Position numbers and translations under genes: made by a program. The notes under the pieces were generated by a model. It searched no databases, was not told where the DNA came from, and saw nothing but the letters and a program-made list of their open reading frames with translations. A stretch of DNA of 64,000 nucleotides from Candidatus Omnitrophota bacterium (GTDB lineage Bacteria; Omnitrophota; Gorgyraeia; Aquiviventales; Aquiviventaceae), in NCBI GenBank assembly GCA_016209275.1, contig JACQWM010000004.1, forward strand, positions 42,243-106,242, given 5' to 3'. Shown here piece after piece: positions 2,104 to 46,798 of this stretch (within the stretch, counting starts at the first letter, position 1; each line of letters begins with the position of its first letter).

Positions 2104-2558
2104 GCCGAACCATACACGACGTGAAGATCATCCCGCTGCGGCAGGTGGTCGATGAGCGGGGCAAGATCATGCACATGCTCAAGGCGACTGACCCGCATTT
2201 CATCCGCTTCGGCGAGATCTATTTTTCATGCGCGTGGCCTGGGGCGATTAAGGCCTGGCACATCCACACATCCATGACGCTGCATAACGCGGTGATCTCG
2301 GGCCGGGCGAAACTCGTGATGTACGACGGCCGCAAAGGCTCGCCGAGCTACGGCACGATCCAGGAGGTCTTTCTCGGGGAAGACAACTACGTGCTGGTGC
2401 AAATTCCGCCCGGCATTACGAACGGGTATAAGGCGTACGGCGATCGGCTGGTCATCCTGGCGAATTGCGCCACCGAGCCGCATCGGCCCGAAGAGATTGT
2501 GCGCATCGATCCGTTCACGACGGAGATTCCCTACGACTGGGGGCTGCGGCATGGCTGA
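2100..2558 (+). CDS. RmlC-like cupin sugar 3,5-epimerase / ketoisomerase
   Basis: ~150 aa cupin fold (GEIYFSCAWPGAIKAWHIH...). The ATG overlaps the upstream TGA. Confidence 0.55.
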   Translation: MSRTIHDVKIIPLRQVVDERGKIMHMLKATDPHFIRFGEIYFSCAWPGAIKAWHIHTSMTLHNAVISGRAKLVMYDGRKGSPSYGTIQEVFLGEDNYVLVQIPPGITNGYKAYGDRLVILANCATEPHRPEEIVRIDPFTTEIPYDWGLRHG

Positions 2559-3618
2559 GCTTGTGAATGCGGAGTGCGGAGTGCGGAACGCGGAGTTCGT
2601 TGAGCACTACGCCACAAATCGACGGCCGCGATTAATCGTCACGCGCACACCGCTGCGTATTAGCTTTGCCGGCGGCGGAACGGATTTGCCGGATTTTTAT
2701 GCGCGCGAAGATGGCGCCGTGCTGAGCACGACGATTAACCACTACTTGTACGTGACGGTCAAGCCGCACGGGCGCTTGTTCAACGAAGGCTTTCGCCTCA
2801 ACTATTCCGAGACGGAGCATGTGGAGCGCTTGGATGAGGTGAAGAACCACATCGCCCGCGAATGCCTGAGGTTTTTGCGGATTGATCCGCCGCTGTACAT
2901 CAGCACGATCGCCGACGTGCCGGAGTTTTCCGGCTTAGGCTCCTCCAGCAGTTTCGCGGTCGGCCTGCTGCAAGCGCTCCATGCGCTTCGCGGCGAGCGG
3001 ATTGCCGCCGGACCGCTGGCCGAGGAAGCGGCTCATATTGAAATCGAGGTGCTGCGCCGGCCGATCGGCAAGCAGGATCACTACGCGGCCGCCTTCGGCG
3101 GCGTGAATGTGTTTTACTTTAAGGCCGACGGCCGGGTGACGGTGGAATCCCAGCACGTCGCCGAGGGGGTCTTGGATGAGATGTTTGCGCATTTACTGAT
3201 GTTTTGGACCGGCATCCGCCGGGATGCCAGCACGATCCTGAGCCTGCAGCAACAGCGGACCGAAACGAATCGTGAGTATTTGCAGCAGATGCGCGAGCAT
3301 GCGCGGCAGCTCCAAGCGCTCTTGCGCAACGGGTTTGACCCGGAGCGCTTTGGGCGCATCCTGGACGCCTCGTGGCATCTGAAGCGGCAGTTGACGAGCA
3401 ACATGACGAACGCGCGCATCGAAACGTGGTATCAGCGCGCCAAGCAGGCCGGGGCGTCGGGCGGCAAGATCTGCGGGGCCGGCGGCGGCGGCTTCCTCTT
3501 ATTCACCGCGCCACCGCAGCGGCAAGAGGCGGTCAGAGCCGCACTGGCCGATCTCACCGAGGTGCCGATTCGCTACGAGGCGCACGGCTCTCGGGTGCTG
3601 CTGCCCTCGATGGAGTAG
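2551..3618 (+). CDS. hddA: GHMP-family sugar kinase, D-glycero-D-manno-heptose 7-phosphate kinase (HddA-like)
   Basis: RTPLRISFAGGGTD, GLGSSSSFAVGLL and GGKICGAGGGGFLLF GHMP motifs. Start uncertain (an unusual ~35-aa N-terminal leader). Confidence 0.7.
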   Translation: MAELVNAECGVRNAEFVEHYATNRRPRLIVTRTPLRISFAGGGTDLPDFYAREDGAVLSTTINHYLYVTVKPHGRLFNEGFRLNYSETEHVERLDEVKNHIARECLRFLRIDPPLYISTIADVPEFSGLGSSSSFAVGLLQALHALRGERIAAGPLAEEAAHIEIEVLRRPIGKQDHYAAAFGGVNVFYFKADGRVTVESQHVAEGVLDEMFAHLLMFWTGIRRDASTILSLQQQRTETNREYLQQMREHARQLQALLRNGFDPERFGRILDASWHLKRQLTSNMTNARIETWYQRAKQAGASGGKICGAGGGGFLLFTAPPQRQEAVRAALADLTEVPIRYEAHGSRVLLPSME

Positions 3619-3621
3619 ACG

Positions 3622-4602
3622 ATGACCCAACGCATTTTGATCACCGGGGCCACCGGGATGATCGGCGCGGCCTTCATCCGGCGCGCGCTGGCGGATGGCC
3701 ATGAGGTGACCGTGATGGTCCGCCGCGAATCAAATCGTTTGCGGCTGATTGAGGTCGAATCGTCGCTGCGCTTGCACGACGGTGATGTCACCGATGCGCA
3801 GAGTGTTGCGAACGCTGTTGACGCGGCGCGTCCTGAGGTGGTCGTGCATTTGGCGAGCAGCTCGTTTAATCCTCCGACGATCAGCGCGCAGACGCATTGG
3901 GACGCGATCGGCAAGGGAACCCTGATCATGCTGGAGATCCTCCGATCATGGCCGCAGACGCGGTTCGTCATGACCGGCTCCGCCGCGGCGTACGGCAGTG
4001 GTGCCAGGCTCACCGAGACCCAACCGCTGCGGCCAGCCACCGCGCTCGGCGCGGCCAAAGCGACGGCGAGTATATGGATGCACACCTATGCTCGGCTCTA
4101 CGGGATCCAGGCTGTTGAGCTGAGACTGTTCATGCCGTATGGCCCGTGGGAGCATCCGCGACGGTTGATTCCGCAGACCATCCTCTCTGCGCTCGCCGGA
4201 GAAGAGCTCCGGACCACTGACGGCAGGCAGCAGCGGGATCTGGTGTATGTTGACGATGTGGTGGACGCACTCCTCTTGGCGGCCACGCGGCCGGTCGCCG
4301 CCGGGTCGGTTTTCAACATCGGCTCAGGGATCGGCACGCGGGTGCGCGATGTGGTCGACCGGATTCTTACGCTGATGGGCGATCCGGTGAACGTGATCCG
4401 AGGCGCCTTGCCGACGCGGCCGGATGAAATCCTTGAGATGTCGGCGGATATCACGGCGGCCAAAAGGAAACTCGGATGGCAGCCGCGCATCGGATTAGAC
4501 GAAGGACTGCGCCGGACGATCGCGTGGGTCACGGATCATCGCGAGCTCTTAGAGCACCTGGCACAGCCGCAAGCACCGATCGCCGCCGGCGGCGAACGAT
4601 GA
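3622..4602 (+). CDS. NAD-dependent epimerase/dehydratase (extended SDR)
   Basis: ILITGATGMIGAAF Rossmann motif. ~326 aa. Confidence 0.7.
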   Translation: MTQRILITGATGMIGAAFIRRALADGHEVTVMVRRESNRLRLIEVESSLRLHDGDVTDAQSVANAVDAARPEVVVHLASSSFNPPTISAQTHWDAIGKGTLIMLEILRSWPQTRFVMTGSAAAYGSGARLTETQPLRPATALGAAKATASIWMHTYARLYGIQAVELRLFMPYGPWEHPRRLIPQTILSALAGEELRTTDGRQQRDLVYVDDVVDALLLAATRPVAAGSVFNIGSGIGTRVRDVVDRILTLMGDPVNVIRGALPTRPDEILEMSADITAAKRKLGWQPRIGLDEGLRRTIAWVTDHRELLEHLAQPQAPIAAGGER

Positions 4603-5891
4603 CGGCGTGCGTGGTGTGCGAGTCAACGCGGGTGGAAGCATTTCTCGATTTTGGCACGACCGCATTGGCCAATAAATTTTTGACGAAGGAAGAATTATCG
4701 CGGGCGGAGCCTGCGTTTCCGTTACGCGTCGGGTTTTGTCATGGCTGCACGCATGTGCAGCTGATGGAGCGCGTCGCCCCCCGCGACATGTTCACTGACT
4801 ATCTGTATGTGTCATCGGCGTCGGAGACGCTGACGGCGCATCTCTTCGAACTCAGCGATGTCGTCGCACGGCGATTCCGCCTGGGCGCGGGCGACCTTGT
4901 CGTCGACATCGGCTGCAATGACGGCACGCTGTTGCGGGGATTCCAGCGCCACGGGGTGAAGACGCTCGGGGTGGATCCAGCCAAAAATCTTGCAGCACTA
5001 GCTGCGGAAAGCGGAATGGAGCGATTCGTGGGATTTTTTAATAGCCAAACCGCCACGCAGATCGCGCAGCGGTGGGGTCGAGCCTCAGCCATCACCGCCA
5101 CCAATACGTTCCCGCATGTTCCCGAGCTGCGTGATTTCATGGAGGGCATTCGCACCGCGTTAGCCCCCGGCGGGGTCTTTGTCATCGAAGCGCATTACCT
5201 GCTGGATCTGCTGGAGCAGGCAGCGTTCGATACCATCTATCACGAACACGTGTCGTACTGGGCCCTCGCACCCATGATGGGCCTCTTTGAGCGCTGCGGC
5301 ATGCAGGTCGTGGATGTCGAGCGGCTTCCGATCCATCATGGACAATTGCGTGTCTTCGTGCAGCGAACGGGTGAAGGGCGTGTGCAGCCGAGCGTTGCTC
5401 GACAGCTTGACGTCGAGCGGAGTGCTGGTTTGGATCGGTTGGCCACCTTCCGGGCGTTTGCCGATCGCACGCAGCAGATCAAGCGGCAGCTGAAGGAGCG
5501 GTTGAGGCAGCTGCGCGCCGAGAGCAAGCGCGTGGCCGGCTATGGGGCGCCGGCGAAAGGCAGCACGTTGTTAGGGTTTCTTGAGTTGGGACCGCAAGAG
5601 ATCGACTACATCGTGGATCGAAGCCCCCTCAAGCAGGGCCGGTTCACGCCCGGCTCGCACATTCCAATCGTGCCGGCAGAGCGCTTGCTTGAGGATCAGC
5701 CCGATGTGGTGGTCGTGCTCGCCTGGAATTTTCTCGACGAAATTATGGATCAGCAACAGGAATATCTGCGGCGTGGGGGGACATTTCTTCTTCCTGTGCC
5801 TGAGGTTCGCCTCATTACAGCCGAAAGCTCGCGCTTTCGGCATTCCGCGGCGACCCCGATGGTCACCGCTTCACGAGGAGAGGGTGCATGA
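4599..5891 (+). CDS. NDP-hexose C-methyltransferase (TylCIII-like class I SAM MTase with N-terminal Zn-ribbon)
   Basis: N-terminal CxxC...CxxC (ACVVCES...CHGCTH), SAM motif VVDIGCNDGTLL, and a C-terminal C-methyltransferase-type domain. ATGA overlap with the upstream gene. Confidence 0.6.
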   Translation: MTACVVCESTRVEAFLDFGTTALANKFLTKEELSRAEPAFPLRVGFCHGCTHVQLMERVAPRDMFTDYLYVSSASETLTAHLFELSDVVARRFRLGAGDLVVDIGCNDGTLLRGFQRHGVKTLGVDPAKNLAALAAESGMERFVGFFNSQTATQIAQRWGRASAITATNTFPHVPELRDFMEGIRTALAPGGVFVIEAHYLLDLLEQAAFDTIYHEHVSYWALAPMMGLFERCGMQVVDVERLPIHHGQLRVFVQRTGEGRVQPSVARQLDVERSAGLDRLATFRAFADRTQQIKRQLKERLRQLRAESKRVAGYGAPAKGSTLLGFLELGPQEIDYIVDRSPLKQGRFTPGSHIPIVPAERLLEDQPDVVVVLAWNFLDEIMDQQQEYLRRGGTFLLPVPEVRLITAESSRFRHSAATPMVTASRGEGA

Positions 5892-6892
5892 GCCACGAGT
5901 TGCACGTCGTTGAAATCAAGCAAATCAACCTGGAGATGGCCGGAGGCTGCAACCTCAAATGCCCCATGTGCCCCCAGTCGTTCGGCCGGGAAAAGGATTT
6001 CTTGAAGCGGCTCCCGCTGGAAGAATTCCGCAAGATCATCGACCAGGCGATTCCCGTGGGGTTGAAGTATGTCAACCTCAGCGGCTCCGGCGAACCGCTG
6101 CTGCACACCGGCTTGGAGGAGGCGGTCCGCTACCTCAATGAGCGGGGCATTACGAGCATGATCTACACCAATGGGATCCGCTTGACTCCAGAGCGTTTTG
6201 AGAGCCTCTGCCAGGCCGGGTTGACGATTTGCAAAGTGTCCTGCCAGGGATGGGATCGGGACAGCTACGCCAAATGGATGTCGATCGACGCGTTTGACCA
6301 AGTGCGGCAGCAGCTCAAAGCGTGCGTCGCACTGCTGAAGACGAAGGGGTATGCCACCTTTCTCCAAACCAACCATCTCGTGCATGACTATGACCAGCGC
6401 GAGCACCAGACCCAGCAGTACGTGACCAATTGGGTCGAGTATCTGGGCGTGCAGGCGGAAATCTGGCTGGAGCACAACTGGTCCGGCCAGTATAAAGACG
6501 CGATCCCTCGGGAGAATATTTTTCAGGACCGGCCCAAGCGCACGTGCGGACGCCCGATGGGCGGGGTCTTGGAGATTCGCGCCGGAGGACTGGGCGGCAA
6601 ATCGGGTGCTGTCGTGCCGTGCCCGTTCGTGCTGGGGCAGGACTCCAAAGCGGTCCTGGGGCATACGCAAGACACGCCCCTCATGGACATCGTCAACGGC
6701 GAGCCGATGCTCGCCTTGCGATCGGCGCACGTGCGCGGAGATTTCGATTCGGTGGACTACTGCCGCAACTGCGATCAATTGCTAGAGGTCAAAGAGTCGC
6801 TGGTGTGGACCAACATCCCCGGTCGCACGTATGGGCCGAGCCGAATCTCAGGAATTAATTACTTAAATCTGTCCGCGGCGCCATCGCCATGA
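5888..6892 (+). CDS. Radical SAM protein (possible SPASM/twitch C-terminal Cys cluster)
   Basis: CNLKCPMC (Cx3Cx2C) near the N-terminus. Additional Cys residues near the C-terminus (CGRPMG...CPFVLG...CRNC). Confidence 0.7.
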   Translation: MSHELHVVEIKQINLEMAGGCNLKCPMCPQSFGREKDFLKRLPLEEFRKIIDQAIPVGLKYVNLSGSGEPLLHTGLEEAVRYLNERGITSMIYTNGIRLTPERFESLCQAGLTICKVSCQGWDRDSYAKWMSIDAFDQVRQQLKACVALLKTKGYATFLQTNHLVHDYDQREHQTQQYVTNWVEYLGVQAEIWLEHNWSGQYKDAIPRENIFQDRPKRTCGRPMGGVLEIRAGGLGGKSGAVVPCPFVLGQDSKAVLGHTQDTPLMDIVNGEPMLALRSAHVRGDFDSVDYCRNCDQLLEVKESLVWTNIPGRTYGPSRISGINYLNLSAAPSP

Positions 6893-7458
6893 CGGGTCTT
6901 GCCTTCCCAACGACAGAGGTTGCGCCGATCACTACGGATCGGTTGGCGCTGCGCATGATATCAGCCGCTGATGTGACGCCGGTGTATGTTGCGTCGATGA
7001 ACGATCCTGAGGTGGTGGGGTTGACCGAGGCGCGGCACGTGGTGTGGGACCATCAGCGGGTGGCGCAGTTCATTGAGCGATCCAACGTTGAAGGGGTGTC
7101 AACTTTGGTGGGGATCTTCCTGAAAGACACCGGACGCCATATCGGCAATCTGCGGTTGTTCAATTTCCATCCCGTGCATCGGCGGGCGGAGCTGAGCTTC
7201 GTCATTTTTGACAAGACCCAATGGTCGAAAGGCTATGCCACAGAGGCGGTCGGCGCGCTCTGCCGCTACGCGTTTGAGACGATGCGTTTGCACCGCATCC
7301 ACGCGGACTATTACGCGACCAACCACGCCTCAGCCCGGTTGTTCCAGAAGGCGGGGTTCCAGGTCGAGGGCGTCTATCGAGGACATTTCTTCGCTGACGG
7401 ACGATATGTGGATTCCATTCGAGTGGCAACACTGAATCCGACTGAGCAGCGCATATGA
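6889..7458 (+). CDS. GNAT-family N-acetyltransferase
   Basis: RimL/RimJ-like motif pattern (HRAELSFVIFD...GYATEAV...ARLFQKAGF). 189 aa. Confidence 0.65.
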   Translation: MTGLAFPTTEVAPITTDRLALRMISAADVTPVYVASMNDPEVVGLTEARHVVWDHQRVAQFIERSNVEGVSTLVGIFLKDTGRHIGNLRLFNFHPVHRRAELSFVIFDKTQWSKGYATEAVGALCRYAFETMRLHRIHADYYATNHASARLFQKAGFQVEGVYRGHFFADGRYVDSIRVATLNPTEQRI

Positions 7459-8618
7459 CGCGCCCATTCATCCCATCGGCGGGTCCTTCGATGACGGAGC
7501 ACGAAGTCCAGTTAGTGGCTCAGGCCGCCCGGGATGGCTGGTATCTTGGCATGATCAAGTACATTGAAGAATTTGAACGGCGATTCTCTGAGTACACCGG
7601 GATGACCTACTGCTTGGCCACGAATAGCTGCACGGCGGCCATTCACCTGGCGATGCTCGCCTTGCGTCTCGGGCCAGGGGATGAGGTGATCGTGCCGGAT
7701 ATCACCTGGGTCGCCTCGGCAGCCCCGGTGTGCTATGTGGGTGCTCGGCCTGTCTTGGTGGATATCGACCCGGTGACGTGGTGCATCTCGCCCGAGGCGT
7801 TTGAGCGCGCGATCACCCGGCGGACGAAAGCCGTTGTGGTCGTTGGCCTGCTGGGTAACATGCCGGAGATGGATGCGATTCGGACGATGGCCGCCAAGCG
7901 CGGGATTCCGATTATCGAGGACGCGGCTGAGTCGGCCGGAGCCACGTACCGCGGCAAAAAAGCCGGCACCTTCGGCACGATCAACGTCTTCAGCTTTAAT
8001 GGCACGAAGCTGATGGTCACCGGCGAAGGCGGCATGTTCGCCACGAATGACAAGCGCTTGTACCTGCGCGCCAAAGGGCTCGCGCACCATGGCTTGCTGA
8101 TGCAGGGCAAGCGATCAAAATTCTACTGGTCCTATGAGCTGGGGTACAAATACAAGATGACCAATGTCCAGGCGGCCCTGGGGTTGGCGCAATTGAGCCG
8201 GATCGACGAGCTGGTGGCGAAACGCCGGCAAAACTTTTTCTGGTATCACGAGCGGCTGAAGAGTGTCGAGGGTCTGCAGCTGAACCAGGAAGGCCCGCAT
8301 GTGAACAGCACGTTTTGGATCGTGACCGGGATTGTGAGCCCGCGCTACCGGATAAAGAAGGAAGCGCTGGTCAGGAAGCTGGTTGAGCGGAAGATCGGCG
8401 GGCGCCCGTTTTTCTATCCGATCAGCGCGATGCCGCCGTTTACCGCGTACGGCCGGGGCCGATCGATGCGCAAGGCTAACCCGGTGTCGTATCGGATCTC
8501 CCCGTACGGCATCTGCCTGCCATCGTCCGCCGCGCTCACCGAAGCGGATGTGGACTATGTCTGCGAGCAGCTTATGGAGATTTTAACGGCGCGAACCGCG
8601 AAAGCGGTCCTGGTATGA
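7455..8618 (+). CDS. DegT/DnrJ/EryC1/StrS-family PLP-dependent sugar aminotransferase
   Basis: Characteristic N-terminal region and the Lys-region FSFNGTKLMVTGEGGM. Confidence 0.8.
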   Translation: MTRPFIPSAGPSMTEHEVQLVAQAARDGWYLGMIKYIEEFERRFSEYTGMTYCLATNSCTAAIHLAMLALRLGPGDEVIVPDITWVASAAPVCYVGARPVLVDIDPVTWCISPEAFERAITRRTKAVVVVGLLGNMPEMDAIRTMAAKRGIPIIEDAAESAGATYRGKKAGTFGTINVFSFNGTKLMVTGEGGMFATNDKRLYLRAKGLAHHGLLMQGKRSKFYWSYELGYKYKMTNVQAALGLAQLSRIDELVAKRRQNFFWYHERLKSVEGLQLNQEGPHVNSTFWIVTGIVSPRYRIKKEALVRKLVERKIGGRPFFYPISAMPPFTAYGRGRSMRKANPVSYRISPYGICLPSSAALTEADVDYVCEQLMEILTARTAKAVLV

Positions 8619-9679
8619 GTAGCACTGAATCACTGACCGTGCTGATCCCGACCTACAACCGGCATCCCCAGCTGCTGCGGCTGCTGCGGTATGCCGCGAC
8701 GGTCGGCTGCCCCTACCCGATGCGTGTGCTCGACTCCAGCAGCGATCCGCTGACATCAGTGGAGCTGCGCCGCGCGCTGGAAGCAGATCGTATCCGGCAT
8801 GAGCGATGGGCGCCGTCGACACCACCCATGCAAAAGCTGCATGAGGGCTTAGCGCATGTGGCCTCGCCGTATGTGGTGGTGTGGGCGGATGATGATTTTC
8901 TCGTGCCCCGCGCGCTGACCGCCGGTGTGAGTTTTTTAGACGCGCACCCGGACTACAGCGTCGTGCATGGCCGCAGCTATCTTCTGACCGTGGAACAAGT
9001 CAATGGCCATGGCGTGCCGTCACGCCAGCCGTATGGGCAGCGGGCCATCACCGCCGCGACCGCGGGTGAAAGGCTTGACGATCATCTGCGCGGCTACACC
9101 GTGCTCAACTACGCCATCCACCGCGCGGAGCGTTTGGCGCGGAATGTTGCGCAGTGCGTGGAGCGCGGCTTCGGCTACAACTGGGGCGAGATCGCGCTGG
9201 GGAGCCTGGACGCCATCCAGGGCAAGGTGGGAGTGTTGGACCAGCTGTATCTTGTGAAGGAAGGGCATCAAGGGCCGGATGCGTGGTGGACATGGTTGTG
9301 CGCAGGTGCTGCAACTCGGCCGAGCGATGTGTTTGACTGGGTGACAGAGGCGAATTTTCCCTCGGCCTATGCGTCGTTCCGCGAGTGTGTGGCGGCCGCC
9401 CTCTCCCAGGAAGACCGCCTGACCATGGATGAGGCGCGGGACATCGTGAAGGCGGCCTTCTGGTCGTATGCGGCGAGGGCGCTGACGGAAAAGCGGCGCG
9501 CGCATGACGGCATGACACATCGCGATGCGTCGATGCGATGGCGCCGCGCGGCCCGCCGAATCCCCGGCCTTCGAGGAATCGTCCGCGCGGTGCGCGGCGG
9601 CAAGGGCGGGGCCGAGCCCGATTGGCTGCCGATCTATCAGGCGATGACCACGAAAGACGTTGAGATGGTGGCTGCATGA
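8615..9679 (+). CDS. GT-A (GT2-like) glycosyltransferase-like protein, paralogue 1 of 3
   Basis: LIPTYNR N-terminus and an acidic WADDDFLVP motif. Its C-terminal Arg-rich helix is shared with the next two genes. Confidence 0.5.
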   Translation: MSSTESLTVLIPTYNRHPQLLRLLRYAATVGCPYPMRVLDSSSDPLTSVELRRALEADRIRHERWAPSTPPMQKLHEGLAHVASPYVVVWADDDFLVPRALTAGVSFLDAHPDYSVVHGRSYLLTVEQVNGHGVPSRQPYGQRAITAATAGERLDDHLRGYTVLNYAIHRAERLARNVAQCVERGFGYNWGEIALGSLDAIQGKVGVLDQLYLVKEGHQGPDAWWTWLCAGAATRPSDVFDWVTEANFPSAYASFRECVAAALSQEDRLTMDEARDIVKAAFWSYAARALTEKRRAHDGMTHRDASMRWRRAARRIPGLRGIVRAVRGGKGGAEPDWLPIYQAMTTKDVEMVAA

Positions 9680-10794
9680 GCGAATGGCTCACCCTGTGCG
9701 TGCCGACGATTAATCGCCCGGCGTTCCTCGGGCGGCTGCTGCGGTACTACGCGGCGGCGTCTGCGCCGTATCGAATCGCCATTGCCGATTCCAGCGACCC
9801 GGTGCGCGCCGAGCAGAATCAGCAGATCATCCGCCGGCTGGCGGGCCGGTTGCACGTGGTGTACCGGCAGTACCCAGGGATGAGCGTGGGCGCATGTTTT
9901 GAAGCCATGAATCAGACGCTGGACACACCGTACTGCGCGCTGCTGGGCGATGATGACTTCCTCTGCCCGCCAGGCTTGGAGCGATGCGTGGAGTTTCTCG
10001 AGGGACATCCTGACTACGGGGCGGCGCACGGGATCGGGCTGCACTTCCAAACTGAAGGCGGCCATCCTCACGGACCGATCGGGAGGGTCGGGCCGTACCC
10101 CCAAGCGGTCCTCGAAACCGACACCGGAGCCCAACGGCTGGGCGAGTTTGTGATGAAAAGCTTGTACGTCCTGATCTATTCGGTCCATCGCGCCGCGATC
10201 TGGCGATCGATGTTCACCGGGGTGGGCGCGATGGAAGACATCAAGACGCAAAACGGATTCAAGAACGAAGTGCTCGCGACGTGCGTCTCTGCGGTCCGCG
10301 GCAAAGTCAAAGCGCTCGATGGCCTCTACTTGTTTCGCCAGGTCCATCAGCGCAACACGCCAGTGCCCCATGTCTACGAGTGGCTGACCGATCCGGAATG
10401 GTTTCCTTCGTATCGCATTTTTGAGGATCGTGTCAGCGAAGAGCTCATGCGGCAAGATCAGTTGCCGATGGAGCAGGCGCGCCAGATCGTCCGAGACGTG
10501 TTTTGGTCCTACTTGGCCAAGGTCATGATGGGGGTACGGGAGAAAGAGCTTCGCCGTCCGAGCCGCCAGGGGACGCTTTCGTCTCTGCGAAGAGCGGCTC
10601 GAGCGATTCCCTGGCTCCGCCGCAGCGGCCGGGCTGCGCGATCCATGTTTGACCGCTATCAGCGCCCGTGGTCGCTGTCCGCCCTCTTGCATCCGTCATC
10701 ACCGTACCACACCGATTTCATGGCGGTGGCGCGGGCCGTGGAGGACCTCAGGCAGACGGTTGAACAGCCGTCAGGGGAGGCGGTGGCGGTCTGA
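9676..10794 (+). CDS. GT-A (GT2-like) glycosyltransferase-like protein, paralogue 2 of 3
   Basis: LCVPTINR and LGDDDFLCP motifs. Clearly paralogous to 8615-9679 and 10794-11870. Confidence 0.5.
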   Translation: MSEWLTLCVPTINRPAFLGRLLRYYAAASAPYRIAIADSSDPVRAEQNQQIIRRLAGRLHVVYRQYPGMSVGACFEAMNQTLDTPYCALLGDDDFLCPPGLERCVEFLEGHPDYGAAHGIGLHFQTEGGHPHGPIGRVGPYPQAVLETDTGAQRLGEFVMKSLYVLIYSVHRAAIWRSMFTGVGAMEDIKTQNGFKNEVLATCVSAVRGKVKALDGLYLFRQVHQRNTPVPHVYEWLTDPEWFPSYRIFEDRVSEELMRQDQLPMEQARQIVRDVFWSYLAKVMMGVREKELRRPSRQGTLSSLRRAARAIPWLRRSGRAARSMFDRYQRPWSLSALLHPSSPYHTDFMAVARAVEDLRQTVEQPSGEAVAV

Positions 10795-11870
10795 TGTTGA
10801 CGTTGTGCGTCCCGACCAAGGATCGATCAGACTTTGTGGGCCGCCTCCTGCGCTACTGCGCGGAGGTCCGCATGCCGTATCGGGTGATGATCGGCGATGC
10901 CAGCCATCCTGAGCATGTCCAGCGCACGCAAGCGACGGTCAGGTCGGTGCAGTCGCTGGTCAATGTTGAGCATCACCTCTGCCCGGGATTGAGCTCCTGC
11001 GCGACCCTGGAATCGCTGAGCCGGCGCATCACGACGCCGTATAGCGTCTTTTTGGGCGATGATGATTTCCTCTGCCCGAGCGGGCTTAAGCGTTGTGCCG
11101 AGTTTTTGGACGCGCATCCAGAGTATAGTGCCGCGCACGGCGAGGGGCTGCGGTTTCAGACCGAGGGCAATGGCGCGCAGGGTGCGATTGGTGTCGTGGC
11201 CTCGTATCCGCAAGCCGTGATTTCCGCATCAACCGGAGCGCAACGCCTGAAGGAATTTTTCACGGCGAGCCTCTACACCTTGCTGTATTCGGTGCACCGC
11301 ACGGAAACGTGGCAAGCGATGTTTCAGGGGCTCTCATCGCTTGAGGGCGTGCAGAATCGCAACATGTTTAAAGATGAGCTGATCGCCGTGTCGGTGTCGG
11401 TGATCCGCGGCAAAGTCAAAGCGCTCCCCAGGCTCTCGCTCATCCACCAGGTGCATGAGGACAGCTATCGATTTCCGCATGTGTATGATTGGATCGCCCA
11501 CCCGTCGTGGTATCCGTCGTTCCAGGCGTTCCGCCAACGCCTTATCGATGAGCTCATCCGGCAAGATGGGATCAGCGCCGAGGACGCGAGCCGGGTAGTG
11601 GCCCGCGTGTTTTGGCCGTATCTCGCGCGCATCATCGGCGATGAGTGGCGCAAGCAGCGCCGCGGAGCCCCGGCTGCGCCCTCGCGGTTACGAGTGGCGG
11701 CAGCGCGGATCCCGGCGGCTCGGCAGGCCTGGCGGGCGGTTCACCAGACGTTTCAGCGCTATCACGATCCGCACTCGCTGGCCGCCTTGCTGCGGCCTTC
11801 CTCGCGGTACGCGGCGGATTTTCTTCCGGTGTATCGAGTGGCGGTGGCCACAGAATGGAATGGAGCGTAG
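10794..11870 (+). CDS. GT-A (GT2-like) glycosyltransferase-like protein, paralogue 3 of 3
   Basis: LCVPTKDR and LGDDDFLCP motifs. Highly similar to paralogue 2 along its full length. Confidence 0.5.
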   Translation: MLTLCVPTKDRSDFVGRLLRYCAEVRMPYRVMIGDASHPEHVQRTQATVRSVQSLVNVEHHLCPGLSSCATLESLSRRITTPYSVFLGDDDFLCPSGLKRCAEFLDAHPEYSAAHGEGLRFQTEGNGAQGAIGVVASYPQAVISASTGAQRLKEFFTASLYTLLYSVHRTETWQAMFQGLSSLEGVQNRNMFKDELIAVSVSVIRGKVKALPRLSLIHQVHEDSYRFPHVYDWIAHPSWYPSFQAFRQRLIDELIRQDGISAEDASRVVARVFWPYLARIIGDEWRKQRRGAPAAPSRLRVAAARIPAARQAWRAVHQTFQRYHDPHSLAALLRPSSRYAADFLPVYRVAVATEWNGA

Positions 11871-11871
11871 C

Positions 11872-12585
11872 ATGACGACCCAACTTCAGCAGCGCCCGCG
11901 GGTGAGAGCCTCTCGCAAGACCACCGCCGGGATCATGGAGCAGCTCGATGCATGGGTGGCATCACACGGCAACGGCCGGTATGAGCGAAGCGATTGGGTG
12001 CCGATGGATGCCTTCATGATCCCGGATGACGCCGGCATTCAGCAGGACCGGGATGAGATTCAGGAGTTTGTCGATGTGCTGCTCAAGCGCCAACACTGCG
12101 CGACCGCGCTTGAAGTCGGCCTGGGCTACTACGGCAGCACGCATTTTCTGTGGCGGCTCATCTTCAACCGCGTCATCACGATCGAAAAATCGCATGAGCG
12201 CGTGCGCAGCTTCGGCACGAGCATGCGCCGGTTCTACAAGCGGTGGGTCTTGGATGACCGGCGCAGCGCCTTCCTGATCGGCATGAGCTATGAACCCTCG
12301 ACGGTGCAAAACGCGTATCAGAGCGCTTCGGATGGTGTTGATCTGTTGTTCATCGACGGCGATCACCAGTACCACTCAGTGCTCACCGATTGGCTGCTCT
12401 ACAGCCCGCTGGTCCGCCCGGGCGGGCTGGTGGCGTTTCATGATATCGGCTTGACGGTCAAAGGCCAGTACGGCGTTCCGGAATTCCTGCGCCGGTTGTC
12501 CTCCGGCGCGCTTGATGGCACGCGGCGCACACTGCGCACCATTCAGCGCACCAAGAACTTGGGGATCGCATTCTATGAAGCCTAA
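11872..12585 (+). CDS. Class I SAM-dependent methyltransferase (Methyltransf_24 / CmcI-like)
   Basis: LLFIDGDHQYHSVLTDW...GGLVAFHDI motif, typical of TylF/CmcI-type sugar O-methyltransferases. Confidence 0.55.
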   Translation: MTTQLQQRPRVRASRKTTAGIMEQLDAWVASHGNGRYERSDWVPMDAFMIPDDAGIQQDRDEIQEFVDVLLKRQHCATALEVGLGYYGSTHFLWRLIFNRVITIEKSHERVRSFGTSMRRFYKRWVLDDRRSAFLIGMSYEPSTVQNAYQSASDGVDLLFIDGDHQYHSVLTDWLLYSPLVRPGGLVAFHDIGLTVKGQYGVPEFLRRLSSGALDGTRRTLRTIQRTKNLGIAFYEA

Positions 12586-13573
12586 GGGGTCTGAGGGCGC
12601 GCGCGTGCTGCTCATCGGCTGCGGCGAGTTGGGCAGCCGCCACCTGCAGGCGATTGCGAGCCTGCCGCAGGTGACAGACATCGACGTGGTCGATCCGAGG
12701 CCAGAGGCCTTGGCCTTGGGACGCAAGCGGCTGGGGGAACTTGCTCCTGGGAATCCATCGACCTCGATCCGTTGGCTCTCATCGTTGGCAGAGGCCACGC
12801 CGGCAGGAGCGCTGTGCATCGTGGCGACGCAAGCCGAGGGCCGGTGCGAGCTCATTCGTCAGGTGGCCCAAACGCTTGGCTACACGAACTTCCTGCTTGA
12901 AAAAATCGTCGCGCAATCGCTGCGCGCCATCGAAGAGCTGGTGGATTTTTTGAGCACACGGCGCTGTGCGGCATGGGTGAATTGCCAAACTCGGGCTTAC
13001 CCGTTTCATCAGCGCGTCAAGCAGCGGCTGGAGGCTTCCTCGCCCATCATGATGACGGTGACCGGAGGCAACCTCGGGCTCGTGACGAATGGCATCCATA
13101 ACGCGGACTTATTTGCGTTCTATACCGGGGCCACTTGCATCGAGCCGGCCGGGGCGTCCATTGATCCGGTGCTCCATCGAACCAAGCGCGGGCAGTATGA
13201 TCTCAGCGGCACGTTGCAGGGACGGACCGAAGACGGCAGCCGGTTCACGCTGGCCTACGCGGCCGATCATGCGCTGTCTGAGCAGATCACGATCGTCACT
13301 CGATCGTATCGATGCGTCGTAGACCATATCCAGCGATGGGCGGTGGAGAGCGACGCCGCCTCTCGCTGGTCATGGCGCAGCGTGCCGTTTGAGGATCAGA
13401 TCATGGTCAGCCAGATGACGCAGCGATTTGCCGCTGACATCTTGGCGCAAAGACGGTGCGCGCTGCCGACGCTTGAGGAATCGTTGGTGGCGCACCGGTT
13501 GATCCTCGGCGAGCTGCAGCCGCATTTCAGCCGCCTTCTGGAGCGGGATCTTGAGCTGGTTCCGGTGACCTGA
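12575..13573 (+). CDS. Gfo/Idh/MocA-like NAD(P)-dependent oxidoreductase
   Basis: N-terminal Rossmann RVLLIGCGELGSRHLQ...DVVD. Confidence 0.5.
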   Translation: MKPKGSEGARVLLIGCGELGSRHLQAIASLPQVTDIDVVDPRPEALALGRKRLGELAPGNPSTSIRWLSSLAEATPAGALCIVATQAEGRCELIRQVAQTLGYTNFLLEKIVAQSLRAIEELVDFLSTRRCAAWVNCQTRAYPFHQRVKQRLEASSPIMMTVTGGNLGLVTNGIHNADLFAFYTGATCIEPAGASIDPVLHRTKRGQYDLSGTLQGRTEDGSRFTLAYAADHALSEQITIVTRSYRCVVDHIQRWAVESDAASRWSWRSVPFEDQIMVSQMTQRFAADILAQRRCALPTLEESLVAHRLILGELQPHFSRLLERDLELVPVT

Positions 13574-14604
13574 TGAGCATGCCATTGGACGCGCAGCCGC
13601 TCGTGTCCTCTGCCGAGCTTGCCGCCGCGCTTGCCGCAACCGACCTTCGCGGTAACACGGCCACGGTGATCGGCTATGGCACCATGGGCCAGCAGTTTGT
13701 CCAAGCGCTGCGAGCCCTTCACCTGCGCCGCGTGCGGGTCTGCTCTCGGTCGCCGCAGTCGATCGAGCCGCTGAAGCCGCTCGAGGGTCTTGAAGCCATC
13801 AGCGGAGGATTCGAGCATCTGCAGTGCCGTCCCCAACCGGATGAGTTAGGCATCATTGCCACGCCGACCGCGTTCTTGGCGGCTGCGGCCGACCGGCTCG
13901 CCGCTTTAGGTTTTCGGCGGCTGCTCATCGAAAAACCGATCGCGCTGCGGTCGGATGAAATCGAGCGGCTGGCGGATCGGCTGGAGCGCCAGGGCGTGGA
14001 TGCGGCATGCGCGTACAACCGGGTGAGCTATCCATCGTTCCATGAGGCGCGCGCACGGGCGGCACAGGACGGTGGGATCACCTCGTGCACCTACACATTC
14101 ACCGAGATGATCAAACCGGATTGGCCCCAGCGGTTTCCTGCCGAGGAGCTGCGGCGATGGGGGATTGCCAACAGCCTGCACGTGATGAGCATGGCCCACG
14201 GGCTGATCGGTTGGCCATCGACGTGGAACGGGCAGCGCGCCGGATCATTGCCCTGGCATCCGACGGGTGCAGTATTTGTCGGCTCCGGTGTCTCGGTGCG
14301 CGGGATCCCGTTTAGCTACCATGCAGATTGGGGCTCCACCGGCCGCTGGTCGGTGGAACTGCATACGGCGGTCTCATCGTATCGGTTCTGCCCGCTCGAG
14401 CAGTGTTTCAGAAGGACATCAGCGCTCGGGGTCTGGGAGGAAGTGCCGGTGGCGGCATTCGCCCCTGAGATCAAAGTCGGGATTGTTGAGGAAGTCGCAG
14501 CCATGCTGGATCCCGGCATCAGAGCTGGCGTTCCTCTGATGTCCTTGCGCGATGCCGCCGTATTGACGCGGTTTGGCGAATCGGTCTTTGGCTACGATGA
14601 TTGA
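13573..14604 (+). CDS. Putative NAD(P)-binding oxidoreductase (Gfo/Idh/MocA-like N-terminus)
   Basis: ATVIGYGTMGQQF Rossmann-like N-terminus. TGATG coupling with the upstream gene. Confidence 0.4.
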   Translation: MSMPLDAQPLVSSAELAAALAATDLRGNTATVIGYGTMGQQFVQALRALHLRRVRVCSRSPQSIEPLKPLEGLEAISGGFEHLQCRPQPDELGIIATPTAFLAAAADRLAALGFRRLLIEKPIALRSDEIERLADRLERQGVDAACAYNRVSYPSFHEARARAAQDGGITSCTYTFTEMIKPDWPQRFPAEELRRWGIANSLHVMSMAHGLIGWPSTWNGQRAGSLPWHPTGAVFVGSGVSVRGIPFSYHADWGSTGRWSVELHTAVSSYRFCPLEQCFRRTSALGVWEEVPVAAFAPEIKVGIVEEVAAMLDPGIRAGVPLMSLRDAAVLTRFGESVFGYDD

Positions 14605-26959: not shown

Positions 26960-28133
26960 CCGCCAGGCATCCCAGGCATCGGTGCCGTTGAGCGCGCCGC
27001 TCTTCCAGGGGCGGGAATGGGAGTATCTCAAGACCTGCCTGGACAGCGGGTGGGTCTCCTCGGCCGGCCCGTTTGTGGAGCGGTTTGAGCGCGAGGTGGC
27101 GGCGTATGTAGGAAGCCCTGAGGCGGTGGCCGTCGTCAACGGGACCGCGGGGTTGCATGTGGCTCTGCGCATGGTCGGCGTTGAGCCGGAGGATGAAGTG
27201 CTGGTTTCCGATGTGACGTTTATTGCGCCGGCGAATGCGATCCGGTATTGCCAGGCCCACCCGGTGTTCATTGATGCCGAGGCCGACACGTGGCAGATGG
27301 ATGTGGAGAAGGCGGAGCGGTTTTTGCGCACGGCATGCCAGCGCCGTCGGAAGGCGTGCTACAACCAGCGTACCGGCCGGCGCGTGCGCGCTATCGTGCC
27401 GGTGCACATCCTGGGACTAGCCTGCGAGATGGATCGGCTGATGGCGCTCGCACGCGAGTATCACCTGCAGGTCGTCGAAGATGCGGCCGAAGCGATGGGC
27501 GTGCGGTATCGCGGAACCCATGTCGGCACGTTTGGCGATGCCGGAGTGTTAAGTTTCAACGGCAACAAAATCATCACTGCCGGAGGCGGCGGCATGGTCC
27601 TCACACGCAGTCGGCGCCATGCGGCCGCTGCTCGGTATCTGACCACGCAGGCCAAAGATGATGCGCTGGAGTATGTGCATCACCACATCGGATACAATTA
27701 CCGGCTGCCGAATATCCAGGCGGCGCTTGGGCTGGCGCAACTGGAGCAGCTGGATGGGTTCATCGCGAAAAAGCGCGCCATCGCCGCGGTGTATGCCGAG
27801 GCGCTGGGGACGATCCATGGCCTGACCTTGATGCCGGCACCGCCGCACACGGAGCCGACCTATTGGCTCTACACCGTGCTGCTCGCACCCGGGACCACGA
27901 TTGCGCGGCGCCAGGCGGTCATCCGAGCGCTGCGCGCCGCCGGGATCGAGGCCCGGCCGTTGTGGCATCCGCTGCACGCCTTGCGGCCCTACCGGCGGTG
28001 CCAGCGGGTGGCGATCGAATACGCGCCTCGGTTATACGCGCGGGCGGTGAGCCTGCCATCCGGGGTGGGCTTGGGCGGCGAGACGCTCGCTGAGTGCGTG
28101 GCCACCGTCAGAGACACCTTGTTAGCCTCATGA
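26928..28133 (+). CDS. DegT-family PLP-dependent sugar aminotransferase (second copy)
   Basis: Lys-region SFNGNKIITAGGGGM and the typical DegT N-terminus. Start uncertain (overlaps upstream by ~30 nt). Confidence 0.7.
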   Translation: MDTAQASTPSNRQASQASVPLSAPLFQGREWEYLKTCLDSGWVSSAGPFVERFEREVAAYVGSPEAVAVVNGTAGLHVALRMVGVEPEDEVLVSDVTFIAPANAIRYCQAHPVFIDAEADTWQMDVEKAERFLRTACQRRRKACYNQRTGRRVRAIVPVHILGLACEMDRLMALAREYHLQVVEDAAEAMGVRYRGTHVGTFGDAGVLSFNGNKIITAGGGGMVLTRSRRHAAAARYLTTQAKDDALEYVHHHIGYNYRLPNIQAALGLAQLEQLDGFIAKKRAIAAVYAEALGTIHGLTLMPAPPHTEPTYWLYTVLLAPGTTIARRQAVIRALRAAGIEARPLWHPLHALRPYRRCQRVAIEYAPRLYARAVSLPSGVGLGGETLAECVATVRDTLLAS

Positions 28134-30211
28134 CATATTTCGTTGAACATTTGACGTTTCGAACATGGGGTGTTGCCATGCTGCCTCGGCTGCTCATGGC
28201 GCGGCTGCGAGGACAGCGCAGGCCGGTGCGCTGCTACGTGATTGAAGGATCGCGGCTCGCACTGCAGGCGGCTCGCGTCACTGGGCGCCTGATCGGTATC
28301 ACGCCGGAGCGGCTTCAATTCCGCCTCATGGAGATTCGCGATGACGCCGGGCTGTCGATCCGCGTGCGGCTGGCCTATCGAGATTTGGCCGAGGTGCAAG
28401 CCGATGCGATGCGCGAGCCGGATTTCATTGCGTGCCAACAGCGCGCTCAAGGGACGGATCGCTTGCTGCCCTACCTGGCCAAGGGGTTGGCGGCCATTGA
28501 TCGGGCCGAGCGGGGAACCCTCTGGCGAAGGATGCTCACCACTCAGATCTGCGCGCGGCATATTTCCAGCGATGGGCAATCTCACGAGACACCGGTCGTG
28601 GTGATGGAGCGGCAGCCGTGGCATGGCGCGATTGAGCGCTATGCCAATCGGCACGGGCTTCGCGTCATTCCGGTTACCGCCGGCTGGGATCTCAATCGGC
28701 GGCTGCGCCGCCTGGCGCGCCGGCTCATCGATCGCATTCCTCGACCGCGGCCAACACAGGCGGTGACTGCCGGCCGAGTCGCCCCAACAGCTCGGCCGCG
28801 GATCGGGCTAACCTTCTATGGCCAGTTGAACCTGAAGCATCCGGGGCGCTACTCGGATCTGTTTTTCCTGCAGCAGTCCGCGATCCGCGGCAGCGACACG
28901 GTCCTGTTCTTTGAGTTTCCGCAGGATCCGCTTGATATGAAGAAGGCGGCTGAGTTGGCCGAGGAGGGCATTGAGGCGGTGGTGCTCAATCCGCGCGCGG
29001 CCACACTCCCCAAGGCGCGCGTGTGGAGTCCAAGACGGCGTGTGAGCGTGAAACAGCCTCGGGGGCGCAGCTGCGAGTCAGCATGGCTGGCGGAGCAAGC
29101 CGAGTCCTATCACGCGCTGCGGGCGTCGTGGCGCGAACTGTGCGCAGCACACCGCGTGAAGATCTACCTGACCTGGTACAAATATGACGGGGTCCATGCG
29201 GCGATCGCGGATGCGCTGCGGGATCTTGGCGGCATCCTCGCGGTCTATCAGCGGGCGTATGAAGGTCTTGCCTCGGCAGAGACGACGGTGAATGCTGATA
29301 TCATGTTCGGTTTCTCCACGATGGGTGCGGAGGTGGAGCAGCGCTCCGGCTCGACGATCGCCTACCATGTCACGACCGGCTACGTCGGCGATCATCGCGT
29401 TTCCCTGTGGCGCGGAGAGGCGATGAAGATCCGGCAGTCGCTGCAACAGCGCGGGGCGCGGCAGATCCTCGCCTTCGCCGATGAATCGACGAAAGATGAC
29501 GCGCGGTGGGCTCCTGGGCATCCGCAGGCCCAGCGCGACTATGCCTTTCTGCTTGAGCGCGTGCTGAATGAGCCGTGGCTTGGATTGGTGGTCAAGCCGA
29601 AGCGGCCGGTGAAGCTGCGGCCGCGGCTTGGGGCCATCGCCCAGCTCTTAGCGCGCGCCGAGGCCACGGGTCGCTGCATCGTGCTCGAAGGAGGGATTCT
29701 TCACGGCTCGGTTCCGCCGGCCGCCGCGGCACTGGCCGCCGATGTGATGATCCACGGCCACCTCTATGCCGCCACCGCCGGGGTGGAGTCTGCCTTAGCC
29801 GGCGTGCCCACGCTGTTGCTTGATCACGAGGGGTGGGCGGCAAGCCCCTTGTATCGATTAGGCGTGGGGCAGGTGGTGTTTCATGACTGGGAGTCCTTGT
29901 GGAAGCGGTGCCGTGAGCACTGGCATCAGCCGGGTGGTGTGCCGGGATTTGGCGACTGGTCTTCGATGCTTGATGAGCTGGATCCGTTTCGAGACGGCCG
30001 GGCGGCCGAGCGGCTGAGCACGTATCTTCAGTGGCTGCTCGAAGGATTTGCCGCCGGAGCCAGCCGCGAGACGGTCATGGCTGATGCCGCGCAGCGCTAT
30101 GCCTTGCAATGGGGCCACGAGATGGTGACCTCTGTTAACGCGGCCGGCTCAATTCGATATCAGATATCAAACCGCGGTTTGATATCTGATATCGCCTTGC
30201 AGGCGAGATGA
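28130..30211 (+). CDS. Large hypothetical protein (~693 aa), possible GT-B/capsule-synthesis-like transferase
   Basis: No canonical motifs. The C-terminal Rossmann-like segment resembles GT-B or CDP-glycerol transferase folds. ATGA coupling with the upstream DegT. Confidence 0.4.
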   Translation: MTYFVEHLTFRTWGVAMLPRLLMARLRGQRRPVRCYVIEGSRLALQAARVTGRLIGITPERLQFRLMEIRDDAGLSIRVRLAYRDLAEVQADAMREPDFIACQQRAQGTDRLLPYLAKGLAAIDRAERGTLWRRMLTTQICARHISSDGQSHETPVVVMERQPWHGAIERYANRHGLRVIPVTAGWDLNRRLRRLARRLIDRIPRPRPTQAVTAGRVAPTARPRIGLTFYGQLNLKHPGRYSDLFFLQQSAIRGSDTVLFFEFPQDPLDMKKAAELAEEGIEAVVLNPRAATLPKARVWSPRRRVSVKQPRGRSCESAWLAEQAESYHALRASWRELCAAHRVKIYLTWYKYDGVHAAIADALRDLGGILAVYQRAYEGLASAETTVNADIMFGFSTMGAEVEQRSGSTIAYHVTTGYVGDHRVSLWRGEAMKIRQSLQQRGARQILAFADESTKDDARWAPGHPQAQRDYAFLLERVLNEPWLGLVVKPKRPVKLRPRLGAIAQLLARAEATGRCIVLEGGILHGSVPPAAAALAADVMIHGHLYAATAGVESALAGVPTLLLDHEGWAASPLYRLGVGQVVFHDWESLWKRCREHWHQPGGVPGFGDWSSMLDELDPFRDGRAAERLSTYLQWLLEGFAAGASRETVMADAAQRYALQWGHEMVTSVNAAGSIRYQISNRGLISDIALQAR
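30155..30194. repeat. Perfect 40-bp palindrome CGATATCAGATATCAAACCG|CGGTTTGATATCTGATATCG
   Basis: Read directly from the sequence. Lies in the last codons of the 28130-30211 gene, 14 nt before the next ATG. Confidence 0.9.
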
Positions 30212-45860: not shown

Positions 45861-46798
45861 CGCGGCCGGTGGTGTATGTGGCGTTGCAGCAGTTCTGCGA
45901 GGCGGATGACCGTCCGCGGCGTCTGCTGCAGGAAGCCGGTGTTGCCGTGAACGTCAACAGGCTTGGGCGGCGCATGAAGCGGGAGGATTTGCTGCGGGAA
46001 CTTCCAGGGGTCGATGCGGTGCTCGCCGGGATCGAGCCCTACGACGCCGAGCTGCTCGCGGCCTTGCCGCAGCTTCGGTGCATCAGCCGTTGCGGAGTCG
46101 GCACCGATGCGATTGATCTTGAGGCCGCACAGCGGCTGGGGGTTGCCGTGCTGACCACCGGAGATGAAGTCGTCGAGCCGGTGGCCCAGCTGACCATCGC
46201 CATGATGCTGGCACTCGCGCGCCAGATTCCTGAGCACCTTGCCGATGCGCGCCAAGGCCGATGGACGAAGCGGACCGGGGTGTTGTTGTCCGAATGGACC
46301 ATCGGCCTGGTGGGGTTTGGACGCATCGGGCGTCGTGTGGAGCAGTATCTGCGCCCGTTTCAGCCGACGGTGCTGGTGGCGGATCCGCAGGCCACGTCAA
46401 GCGAGCTTCCAAAATCGGTCCATCTGCGGTCGCTTGAGACGCTGTTGGTAGAGGCGGACTGCGTCTCGCTGCATGTCAGCCGGCCTCGAACTGAGGGTGT
46501 GGTGATCGGCCGCAAGGAGTTCGCGTTGATGAAGCCCGGGGCGGCGCTGATTAATACGTCGCGGGGCTATCTGGTGGATGAAGCCGCGCTGCATGATGCG
46601 ATCCAGGAGCACCGGCTAAGCGCAGCCGCGCTCGACGTCTTCGAGGCCGAGCCGCATGTCGGGCCGCTGGCAACGCTGCCCCAAGTCTTGTGTACTCCGC
46701 ATATCGGCTCCTTGACCCGTGCGTCACGCATGGCCATGGAGCAACGCTGCGCTCAGCACGTGGTCGACTTCTTCGCTGCCGCATCAACGCGACGATGA
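45857..46798 (+). CDS. D-isomer-specific 2-hydroxyacid dehydrogenase
   Basis: NAD-binding motif GLVGFGRIGRRV. ~313 aa. Confidence 0.75.
   Translation: MTRPVVYVALQQFCEADDRPRRLLQEAGVAVNVNRLGRRMKREDLLRELPGVDAVLAGIEPYDAELLAALPQLRCISRCGVGTDAIDLEAAQRLGVAVLTTGDEVVEPVAQLTIAMMLALARQIPEHLADARQGRWTKRTGVLLSEWTIGLVGFGRIGRRVEQYLRPFQPTVLVADPQATSSELPKSVHLRSLETLLVEADCVSLHVSRPRTEGVVIGRKEFALMKPGAALINTSRGYLVDEAALHDAIQEHRLSAAALDVFEAEPHVGPLATLPQVLCTPHIGSLTRASRMAMEQRCAQHVVDFFAAASTRR

Follow-up and report, generated by a model that had tools for sequence, protein, structure and literature searches.

Organization of the three genes

The window analysed here, a stretch of 64,000 nucleotides (nt) from a contig of a Candidatus Omnitrophota bacterium, carries three related genes one after another on its plus strand, designated GT1 (8615–9679, 354 amino acids, aa), GT2 (9676–10794, 372 aa) and GT3 (10794–11870, 358 aa). 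Each encodes a predicted glycosyltransferase of the NCBIfam family TIGR04440. Comparison with other loci shows that GT1, of a type called A here, and GT3, a canonical member of a type called B, represent an ancient pair conserved in order, with GT2 being an additional, long-diverged B-type copy lying between them. Most likely, the three are active GT-A transferases which differ in donor, acceptor or linkage specificity and which would act successively on one glycan made of the cluster's own sugars. It should be noted that a set of transferases resembling CAZy family GT2 (the family, not the gene) is expected content inside a glycan cluster. The new point is a modest one, namely that the recurring unit is an ordered A-B pair within a conserved exotic-sugar cassette.

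The three open reading frames (ORFs), their positions and their overlaps were found exactly as described in an earlier reading of this DNA by a model working from the letters alone (the sequence-only reading). GT1 and GT2 share the four bases ATGA at their junction and GT2 and GT3 share one base within TGATG. The upstream aminotransferase gene (7455–8618) likewise shares 4 nt with GT1, and the gene 3' of GT3 begins at 11872, one base past the GT3 stop codon. With further overlaps at the junctions of the radical SAM and GNAT genes and of the GNAT and aminotransferase genes, tight packing is a property of the operon as a whole. One gene caller placed the start of GT3 26 codons later (P0032, 332 aa). 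This would remove the invariant N-terminal strand bearing PTxxR, and the ATG at 10794 is therefore preferred.

Pairwise BLASTP comparison gave 48% identity over 349 aa between GT2 and GT3 (E value of 3e-117), 32% between GT1 and GT2 (3e-39) and 30% between GT1 and GT3 (5e-32), a homology far above chance. Most of the shared motifs listed in the sequence-only reading were recovered. The N-terminal motif reads PTYNR in GT1, PTINR in GT2 and PTKDR in GT3, the acidic motif DDDFL is present in all three, and the arginine-rich stretch takes the form RRAARRIPGLR in GT1, RRAARAIPWLRR in GT2 and RVAAARIPAAR in GT3. The WSY motif reported for all three holds for GT1 and GT2 (FWSY) and not for GT3, which has FWPY. 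BLASTP detected no further paralogue within the window, the only weak match of the GT2-family type being an 842-aa ORF (46690–49218). An ORF of 351 aa lies antisense to GT2 on the minus strand (9637–10692), and other long antisense ORFs of this kind are scattered along the window; it is a shadow ORF arising by chance in coding DNA of 63% G+C and is unsupported as a gene.

A conserved A-B pair and an old additional copy

An A-type gene followed head to tail by a B-type gene was found in at least 12 other loci (L001, L002, L003, L030, L037, L041, L043, L045, L046, L051, L055, and L060). In 11 of 14 other pairs, the stop codon of the A gene overlaps the start of the B gene, the overlap ranging from 1 to 29 nt. 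In a neighbour-joining tree (100 bootstrap replicates), GT1 grouped within an A-core clade (97/100) together with the upstream partners of the other pairs, except for those of L003 and L060, which were recovered close to that clade, in a broader A group supported in only 40 of 100 replicates. GT2, GT3 and every downstream partner formed a B clade supported in 98 of 100 replicates. GT3 is 51–56% identical to the B partners elsewhere and, as in those loci, precedes a Methyltransf_24 gene.

The same tree bears on the age of the two B-type copies. The sequence-only reading had described the second and third proteins as very similar and had proposed a recent duplication, in which case GT2 and GT3 could be largely redundant. 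They are indeed adjacent, belong to the same clade and are closer to each other than either is to GT1. However, the likeness was overstated, their identity being 47–48% at the amino acid level and about 65% at the nucleotide level over the best stretch of 480 nt. GT2 is 49–51% identical to B partners elsewhere and up to 55% identical to database homologs, against 47% to GT3 in the same comparison, so that each copy is at least as close to orthologs in other organisms as to its neighbour. In none of the 100 bootstrap trees were GT2 and GT3 sisters. Identities across loci exceeding that between the two copies, together with this lack of a sister relationship, place their split at least as far back as the divergence of the hosts, or else one copy was acquired. 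Recent duplication was rejected on these identities and bootstraps; redundant recent duplicates are a very improbable explanation and are essentially excluded. Thus, of the triplicated transferase first described, the three copies stand and the simple triplication does not, as an A-B pair recurring in at least 12 loci has been joined here by an old extra B copy.

Three family genes were also seen in L042 (2370–6976), where an A-like gene and a C-methyltransferase gene precede an A and a B gene. This different arrangement indicates that extra copies arose more than once. A more distant family pair is present in L033, and loci with a single copy are common (for example L032, L034, L048, L052, L057, and L076).

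Family membership and predicted fold

All three proteins passed the curated cutoff of TIGR04440 (70 bits) about twofold, at 142.0 bits for GT1, 138.2 bits for GT2 and 146.6 bits for GT3. The alignments covered model positions 2–215 of the 215-position model, corresponding to protein residues ~2–220. The check proposed in the sequence-only reading, a TIGRFAM or Pfam search for a GT2-like family, thus returned a positive answer. The Pfam family Glycos_transf_2 (PF00535, gathering score 23.3 bits) was barely matched by GT1 (27.4 bits) and GT2 (25.7 bits) and was not matched by GT3, which indicates a distant branch of the GT2 family. The shared features are those of SpsA and of CAZy GT2 enzymes in general: a common GT-A fold, an N-terminal nucleotide-binding strand, a strand 2 ending in an aspartate, and a DxD motif.

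AlphaFold2 models of GT1 and GT2 were built with an alignment of 81 sequences. The GT2 model had a predicted local distance difference test score (pLDDT) of 91.9 and a predicted template modelling score (pTM) of 0.90, and the GT1 model, in which strands and helices follow one another as in GT2, reached a pLDDT of 87.2 and a pTM of 0.86. Both models show a GT-A fold for the TIGR04440 domain, the match to solved enzymes having been obtained with GT2. By sequence, the best solved relative of a profile of GT1–GT3 in the PDB was TarS (E value of 1.5e-4, over the N-terminal 130 residues). By structure, Foldseek matched GT2 to SpsA, TarS, WrtF and TarP with query-normalised template modelling (TM) scores of 0.4–0.5. 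These scores are low because a helical C-terminal part of ~140 residues lacks a close solved counterpart, and superposition with the solved enzymes was limited to the catalytic domain and part of the helices following it. The claim that these are three homologous GT-A-like proteins is therefore borne out by the BLASTP values, the family matches and the models.

Each protein would thus consist of an N-terminal catalytic domain of ~220 aa, which contains the DDD motif, followed by a helical, basic domain of ~140 aa at the C terminus, the C-terminal parts having an isoelectric point of 9.2–10.4. The TIGR04440 model, whose cutoff they pass and whose product name is carried by their database relatives, describes the shared catalytic domain only, whereas GT1–GT3 are full-length proteins of ~350 aa with the conserved helical domain in addition. 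The wall-teichoic-acid-decorating enzymes TarS (5tze), TarP (6h1j) and RmlT (8bz4) have just 12–14% identity and Foldseek query-normalised TM-scores of 0.43–0.50, leave the C-terminal domain unmatched and work in a teichoic acid context, which the window lacks. No Maf (MptE-like/DUF115) or FlmG (TPR plus GT-B) domain was detected in GT1–GT3 by Pfam or NCBIfam, the predicted fold being GT-A. No hydrophobic or transmembrane segment was found in any of the three, and membrane anchoring was ruled out on that ground. Taken together, the matches and models suggest that GT1–GT3 are probably soluble, cytoplasmic, metal-dependent GT-A glycosyltransferases of TIGR04440, GT2-like and presumably inverting. 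The three could in principle share a GT-A-like Rossmann fold and have another activity, for instance that of a sugar nucleotidyltransferase. Such a function is hardly credible and is essentially excluded.

Conserved residues and predicted activity of the three copies

Conservation was assessed in 72 relatives (17 A-type, 13 B-type and 42 others), with residues numbered as in GT2. The positions T11, R14, R20, Y24, D38, D92–D94, G119, Y141, R154, R172, E198 and H224 were invariant or nearly so and are kept in GT1–GT3 and in both subfamilies. For T11, R14, D38, D92–D94, G119, Y141, R154, R172, E198 and H224, the counts were 16–17 of the 17 A-type and all 13 B-type sequences. D38 and the DDD motif (D92–D94) were invariant throughout, bar one sequence at D93, and E198 was kept without exception in both clades and in 39 of the 42 other relatives. 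Since the full set of conserved residues is retained, a pseudoenzyme copy among the three was ruled out, and GT1, GT2 and GT3 are all predicted, from these residues, to be probably active glycosyltransferases of the DxD type. The family also has a C-terminal tail motif, SL.ALL.PSSPYH.DF.PIY, which 14 of the 17 A-type and 12 of the 13 B-type sequences retain.

The A and B types differ at a few clade-specific positions, with the catalytic residues common to both. This, along with the order of the pair, could also fit a hetero-oligomer, in which GT1 is obligately bound to a B-type partner, GT3 or else GT2, and the two B copies give two complexes of different specificity. The order A then B is strictly kept in the 12 or more loci and the genes mostly overlap; two proteins, P0087 and P0104, hold two complete family copies in a single chain; and oligomerisation is known for the structural relatives TarS, TarP, RmlT and GalT1. 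However, the halves of P0087 and P0104 look alike by eye and so resemble fused recent duplicates rather than A and B fusions, many family members occur as a single copy, and overlapping junctions are usual in this operon. As the main rival to successive action, such a complex is regarded as possible, although rather unlikely. A bolder form of the same idea is that the A-B pair constitutes an obligate two-subunit glycosyltransferase transferring C-methylated amino sugars derived from GDP-heptose (GDP, guanosine diphosphate) to a surface protein or glycan, with the extra B copy switching specificity. This is considered improbable; if true, it would set apart a large family (~2,000 clusters at 50% identity) distinguished by a C-terminal domain of its own.

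Conserved gene neighbourhood and proposed function

The favoured reading, that of three transferases acting in succession, draws on the genes around the pair, all of which lie on the plus strand. Upstream, a nucleotidyltransferase/GmhB-like fusion gene and an epimerase gene are followed by the gene of an HddA-like GHMP sugar kinase (2497–3618; NF049969 at 148 bits with both GHMP_kinases N and C domains), with orthologs of 62–70% identity in L001, L003, L030 and L055. Next is a short-chain dehydrogenase/reductase (SDR) resembling 4,6-dehydratases of nucleoside diphosphate (NDP) sugars (3622–4602; Epimerase and GDP_Man_Dehyd domains), with orthologs in L001, L003, L030, L045 and L051. An NDP-sugar C-methyltransferase (Methyltransf_13, Methyltransf_23 and Methyltransf_14) was listed at 4476–5891, its true start probably being near 4600, and has orthologs of 66–69% identity in six loci. 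It is followed by a radical SAM/SPASM enzyme (5888–6892; PF04055 plus PF13186), with orthologs of 76–84% in L030, L045 and L051, and by a GNAT N-acetyltransferase (6889–7458; Acetyltransf_3, with a weak PseH-like match) which is fused to the aminotransferase in L030. The DegT/LegC-type sugar aminotransferase (7455–8618; PF01041 at 377 bits) has orthologs of 63–69% identity directly 5' of the A gene in L001, L030, L037, L051 and L055.

On the other side, the Methyltransf_24 (TylF-like) methyltransferase directly 3' of GT3 (11872–12585; PF13578 at 46.7 bits) has orthologs of 62–76% identity which follow the pair or lie close to it in L001, L002, L030, L045, L051 and L044. Two further genes were named GFO-a and GFO-b. 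GFO-a (12512–13573) is weakly Gfo/Idh/MocA-like (PF01408, E value of 0.0018); its TTG start overlaps the methyltransferase gene and its true start may be later. Its orthologs (54–62% identity) follow the pair in L001, L003, L037, L042, L051, L055, L060 and L034. GFO-b (13573–14604) is a Gfo/Idh/MocA-like oxidoreductase (PF01408 at 32 bits) with orthologs of 55–68% identity beside GFO-a in L001, L003, L034, L051, L055 and L060. The two constitute an uncharacterised, co-conserved module, found after A-B pairs or after lone family members in eight or more other loci.

The order of kinase, dehydratase, C-methyltransferase, radical SAM enzyme, GNAT (not always present), aminotransferase, A, B, and then the methyltransferase and/or GFO-a and GFO-b recurs in L001, L030, L045, L051 and L055, with proteins 55–84% identical, and recurs in part in L003, L037, L042 and L060. 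Among the 24 loci of at least 10 kb, and within the flanks retrieved for them, the HddA-like kinase was present in 13, the aminotransferase in 11 and NeuB in 8. Within the window, a NanM-like O-methyltransferase gene lies 3' of GFO-b, and after it comes a module of the legionaminic acid type comprising a GFO protein, a cytidine monophosphate (CMP)-transferase, an SDR, NeuB, a NeuC-like and a PglD-like protein, a HisF/HisH fusion, a WbuX amidotransferase, a CBS-nucleotidyltransferase, a dehydratase and an aminotransferase. The sequence-only reading had linked the three genes to amidotransferase and nonulosonate genes and had taken this as a hint of a dedicated role. The dedicated context is upheld. 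The particular link is refined, these genes being farther off and less constant than the upstream cassette, the methyltransferase and the GFO pair.

In the proposed pathway, the upstream cassette would make an unusual nucleotide sugar by way of HddA/GmhB-like heptose activation, 4,6-dehydration, C-methylation, a radical SAM step, amination and the GNAT enzyme. By association, the conserved cassette and P0153, a natural fusion of a GmhB-like HAD phosphatase with a full family member, point to a heptose-derived donor, which we infer from the gene neighbourhood to be a GDP-heptose derivative. GT1, GT2 and GT3 would each be responsible for a step of its own, distinguished by donor, acceptor or linkage, and together would assemble a short glycan from this modified heptose-type sugar and from the nonulosonates of the legionaminic acid type made by the cluster. 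The A and B proteins would represent an old functional couple, GT2 may have added a step, and the methyltransferase may act on the glycan product.

Several points weigh against this reading. Donor and acceptor are assigned by gene neighbourhood, the family also occurs away from any heptose-like cassette (L002, L032–L034, Pseudomonas, and Bacteroides), and the matches to the heptose pathway fall below the NCBIfam equivalog cutoffs (148 of 600 bits for the HddA-like and 164 of 178 bits for the GmhB-like protein). At least four other glycosyltransferase genes in the window could take some of the proposed steps. The stop/start overlaps, being frequent elsewhere in the operon, say little about GT1–GT3 specifically. 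GT3 lacks the Pfam GT2-family match, and GT1 lacks ~16 aa of the C-terminal tail motif (residues ~325–335), a gap at which the confidence of its AlphaFold2 model is also lower and which might impair the protein.

Nature of the acceptor

The proteins may alternatively be protein O-glycosyltransferases modifying a secreted filament protein, such as flagellin or pilin, in the cytoplasm, rather than enzymes that assemble a lipid-linked polysaccharide; this would be compatible with either successive action or a complex. The enzymes of the window are all soluble apart from one membrane TPR protein, and no gene in the 64 kb resembled a flippase or polymerase (Wzx, Wzy), an ATP-binding cassette (ABC) exporter or an initiating phosphoglycosyltransferase. 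The nonulosonate genes are ptm/leg-like, as in flagellin islands. A Pseudomonas protein of ~977 aa carries an N-terminal TIGR04440 domain (124 bits) and a second GT2-family domain (L007–L012, e.g., L010:9914–12895 and L007:5087–8035). It is widespread, including in P. syringae, and its neighbours are pse-like genes together with a candidate Maf-like gene (identified from the translations only); in L007 its gene lies ~7 kb upstream of fliC. The GT2-family enzymes FgtA (PA1091) and CD0240 glycosylate flagellin directly (PMC11833859), and in P. syringae fliC is preceded by fgt1 and fgt2, which encode flagellin glycosyltransferases (PMC3927599, PMC3402453). The Pseudomonas protein may be Fgt1 or Fgt2.

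It should also be noted that these Pseudomonas proteins share with GT1–GT3 the N-terminal domain and the setting of unusual-sugar and nonulosonate genes, but are only 27–31% identical, over that domain alone, and are without the C-terminal domain of the window proteins. GT1–GT3, at 354–372 aa, have one catalytic domain and do not show the ~977-aa architecture with a second, C-terminal GT2-family domain. Furthermore, the search for flagellin motifs was negative for the 64-kb window and for all Omnitrophota and Planctomycetes loci, so that a location adjacent to fliC was not seen here, although the window is only part of a contig of 162 kb. The family pair in L033 follows a Wzm/Wzt ABC transporter of the O-antigen type, and the closest structures found belong to enzymes of glycopolymer decoration or synthesis. 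A filament protein as the acceptor is regarded as possible, although rather unlikely.

Family size and distribution

An exhaustive profile search recovered 2,098 clusters (at 50% identity) with E values of 1e-30 or below and 5,335 at 1e-10 or below. Most are ~350 aa long and match the whole profile, so that the C-terminal domain and tail motif are the family norm. Nearly all members are from uncultured bacteria. GT2 itself has an identical counterpart at NCBI, encoded in a 'Candidatus Omnitrophica bacterium' metagenome-assembled genome (MAG), and its closest relatives are from MAGs of Omnitrophota and Planctomycetales and from metagenomes. The description of the family as poorly characterised proved apt, as neither TIGR04440 nor the product name used for it in RefSeq was mentioned in any paper of the library searched, and curation of the model stops at the 'domain' level. 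That product name is 'TIGR00180 family glycosyltransferase', which carries a different accession number and has passed into RefSeq and UniRef names; it looks like a naming slip.

This is a large family with no studied member, tied to cassettes for heptose-derived, C-methylated and aminated sugars and for nonulosonic acids. Taking the A-B pair as the unit gives guidance on the choice of proteins for co-expression and of donors for assays, and a function for it could inform the annotations under the RefSeq name, including those in Pseudomonas flagellin islands.

In addition to the fusions described above, P0206 joins an N-terminal domain without a known match to a family member whose helical segment at the C terminus is duplicated. 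A protein of ~670 aa without a family match adjoins TIGR04440 genes in L034 (7935–9959), L044, L047, L052 and L053 and is absent from the window.

Other features of the window

Two large proteins without full assignment are encoded next to each other in the window. The protein of 28094–30211 (~705 aa) has no family match, and that of 30208–32322 (~705 aa), which is not its paralog, has a GmhB-like HAD domain and ~520 residues without an assigned function. The unk705 protein, the C-terminus of HAD704 and the 674-aa neighbour in L034 showed no relation to one another or to the TIGR04440 family. The only multi-pass membrane protein in the 64 kb is an 811-aa TPR protein (51171–53606) with ~8 hydrophobic segments in its first ~300 aa. 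Only its TPRs match a family, and it is possibly a candidate GT-C/ArnT-like periplasmic transferase or ligase.

Farther downstream of the legionaminic-acid-type module are genes for a carbamoyltransferase, aldolases, methyltransferases, a second NeuB, a second CMP-transferase, four other glycosyltransferases and a B12-radical SAM enzyme. The two NeuB genes begin at 18207 and 59622 and the two cytidylyltransferase genes at 16644 and 45051, with a third of the latter just beyond the end of the window (in the overlapping contig L035). The aldolases are of the HpcH and transaldolase types, one of the two radical SAM enzymes of the window has a B12 domain, and at least seven glycosyltransferase domains were counted. 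Sugar-pathway genes, all on the plus strand, fill the whole window as a single array of 64 kb or more, which is unusually large for one glycan locus.

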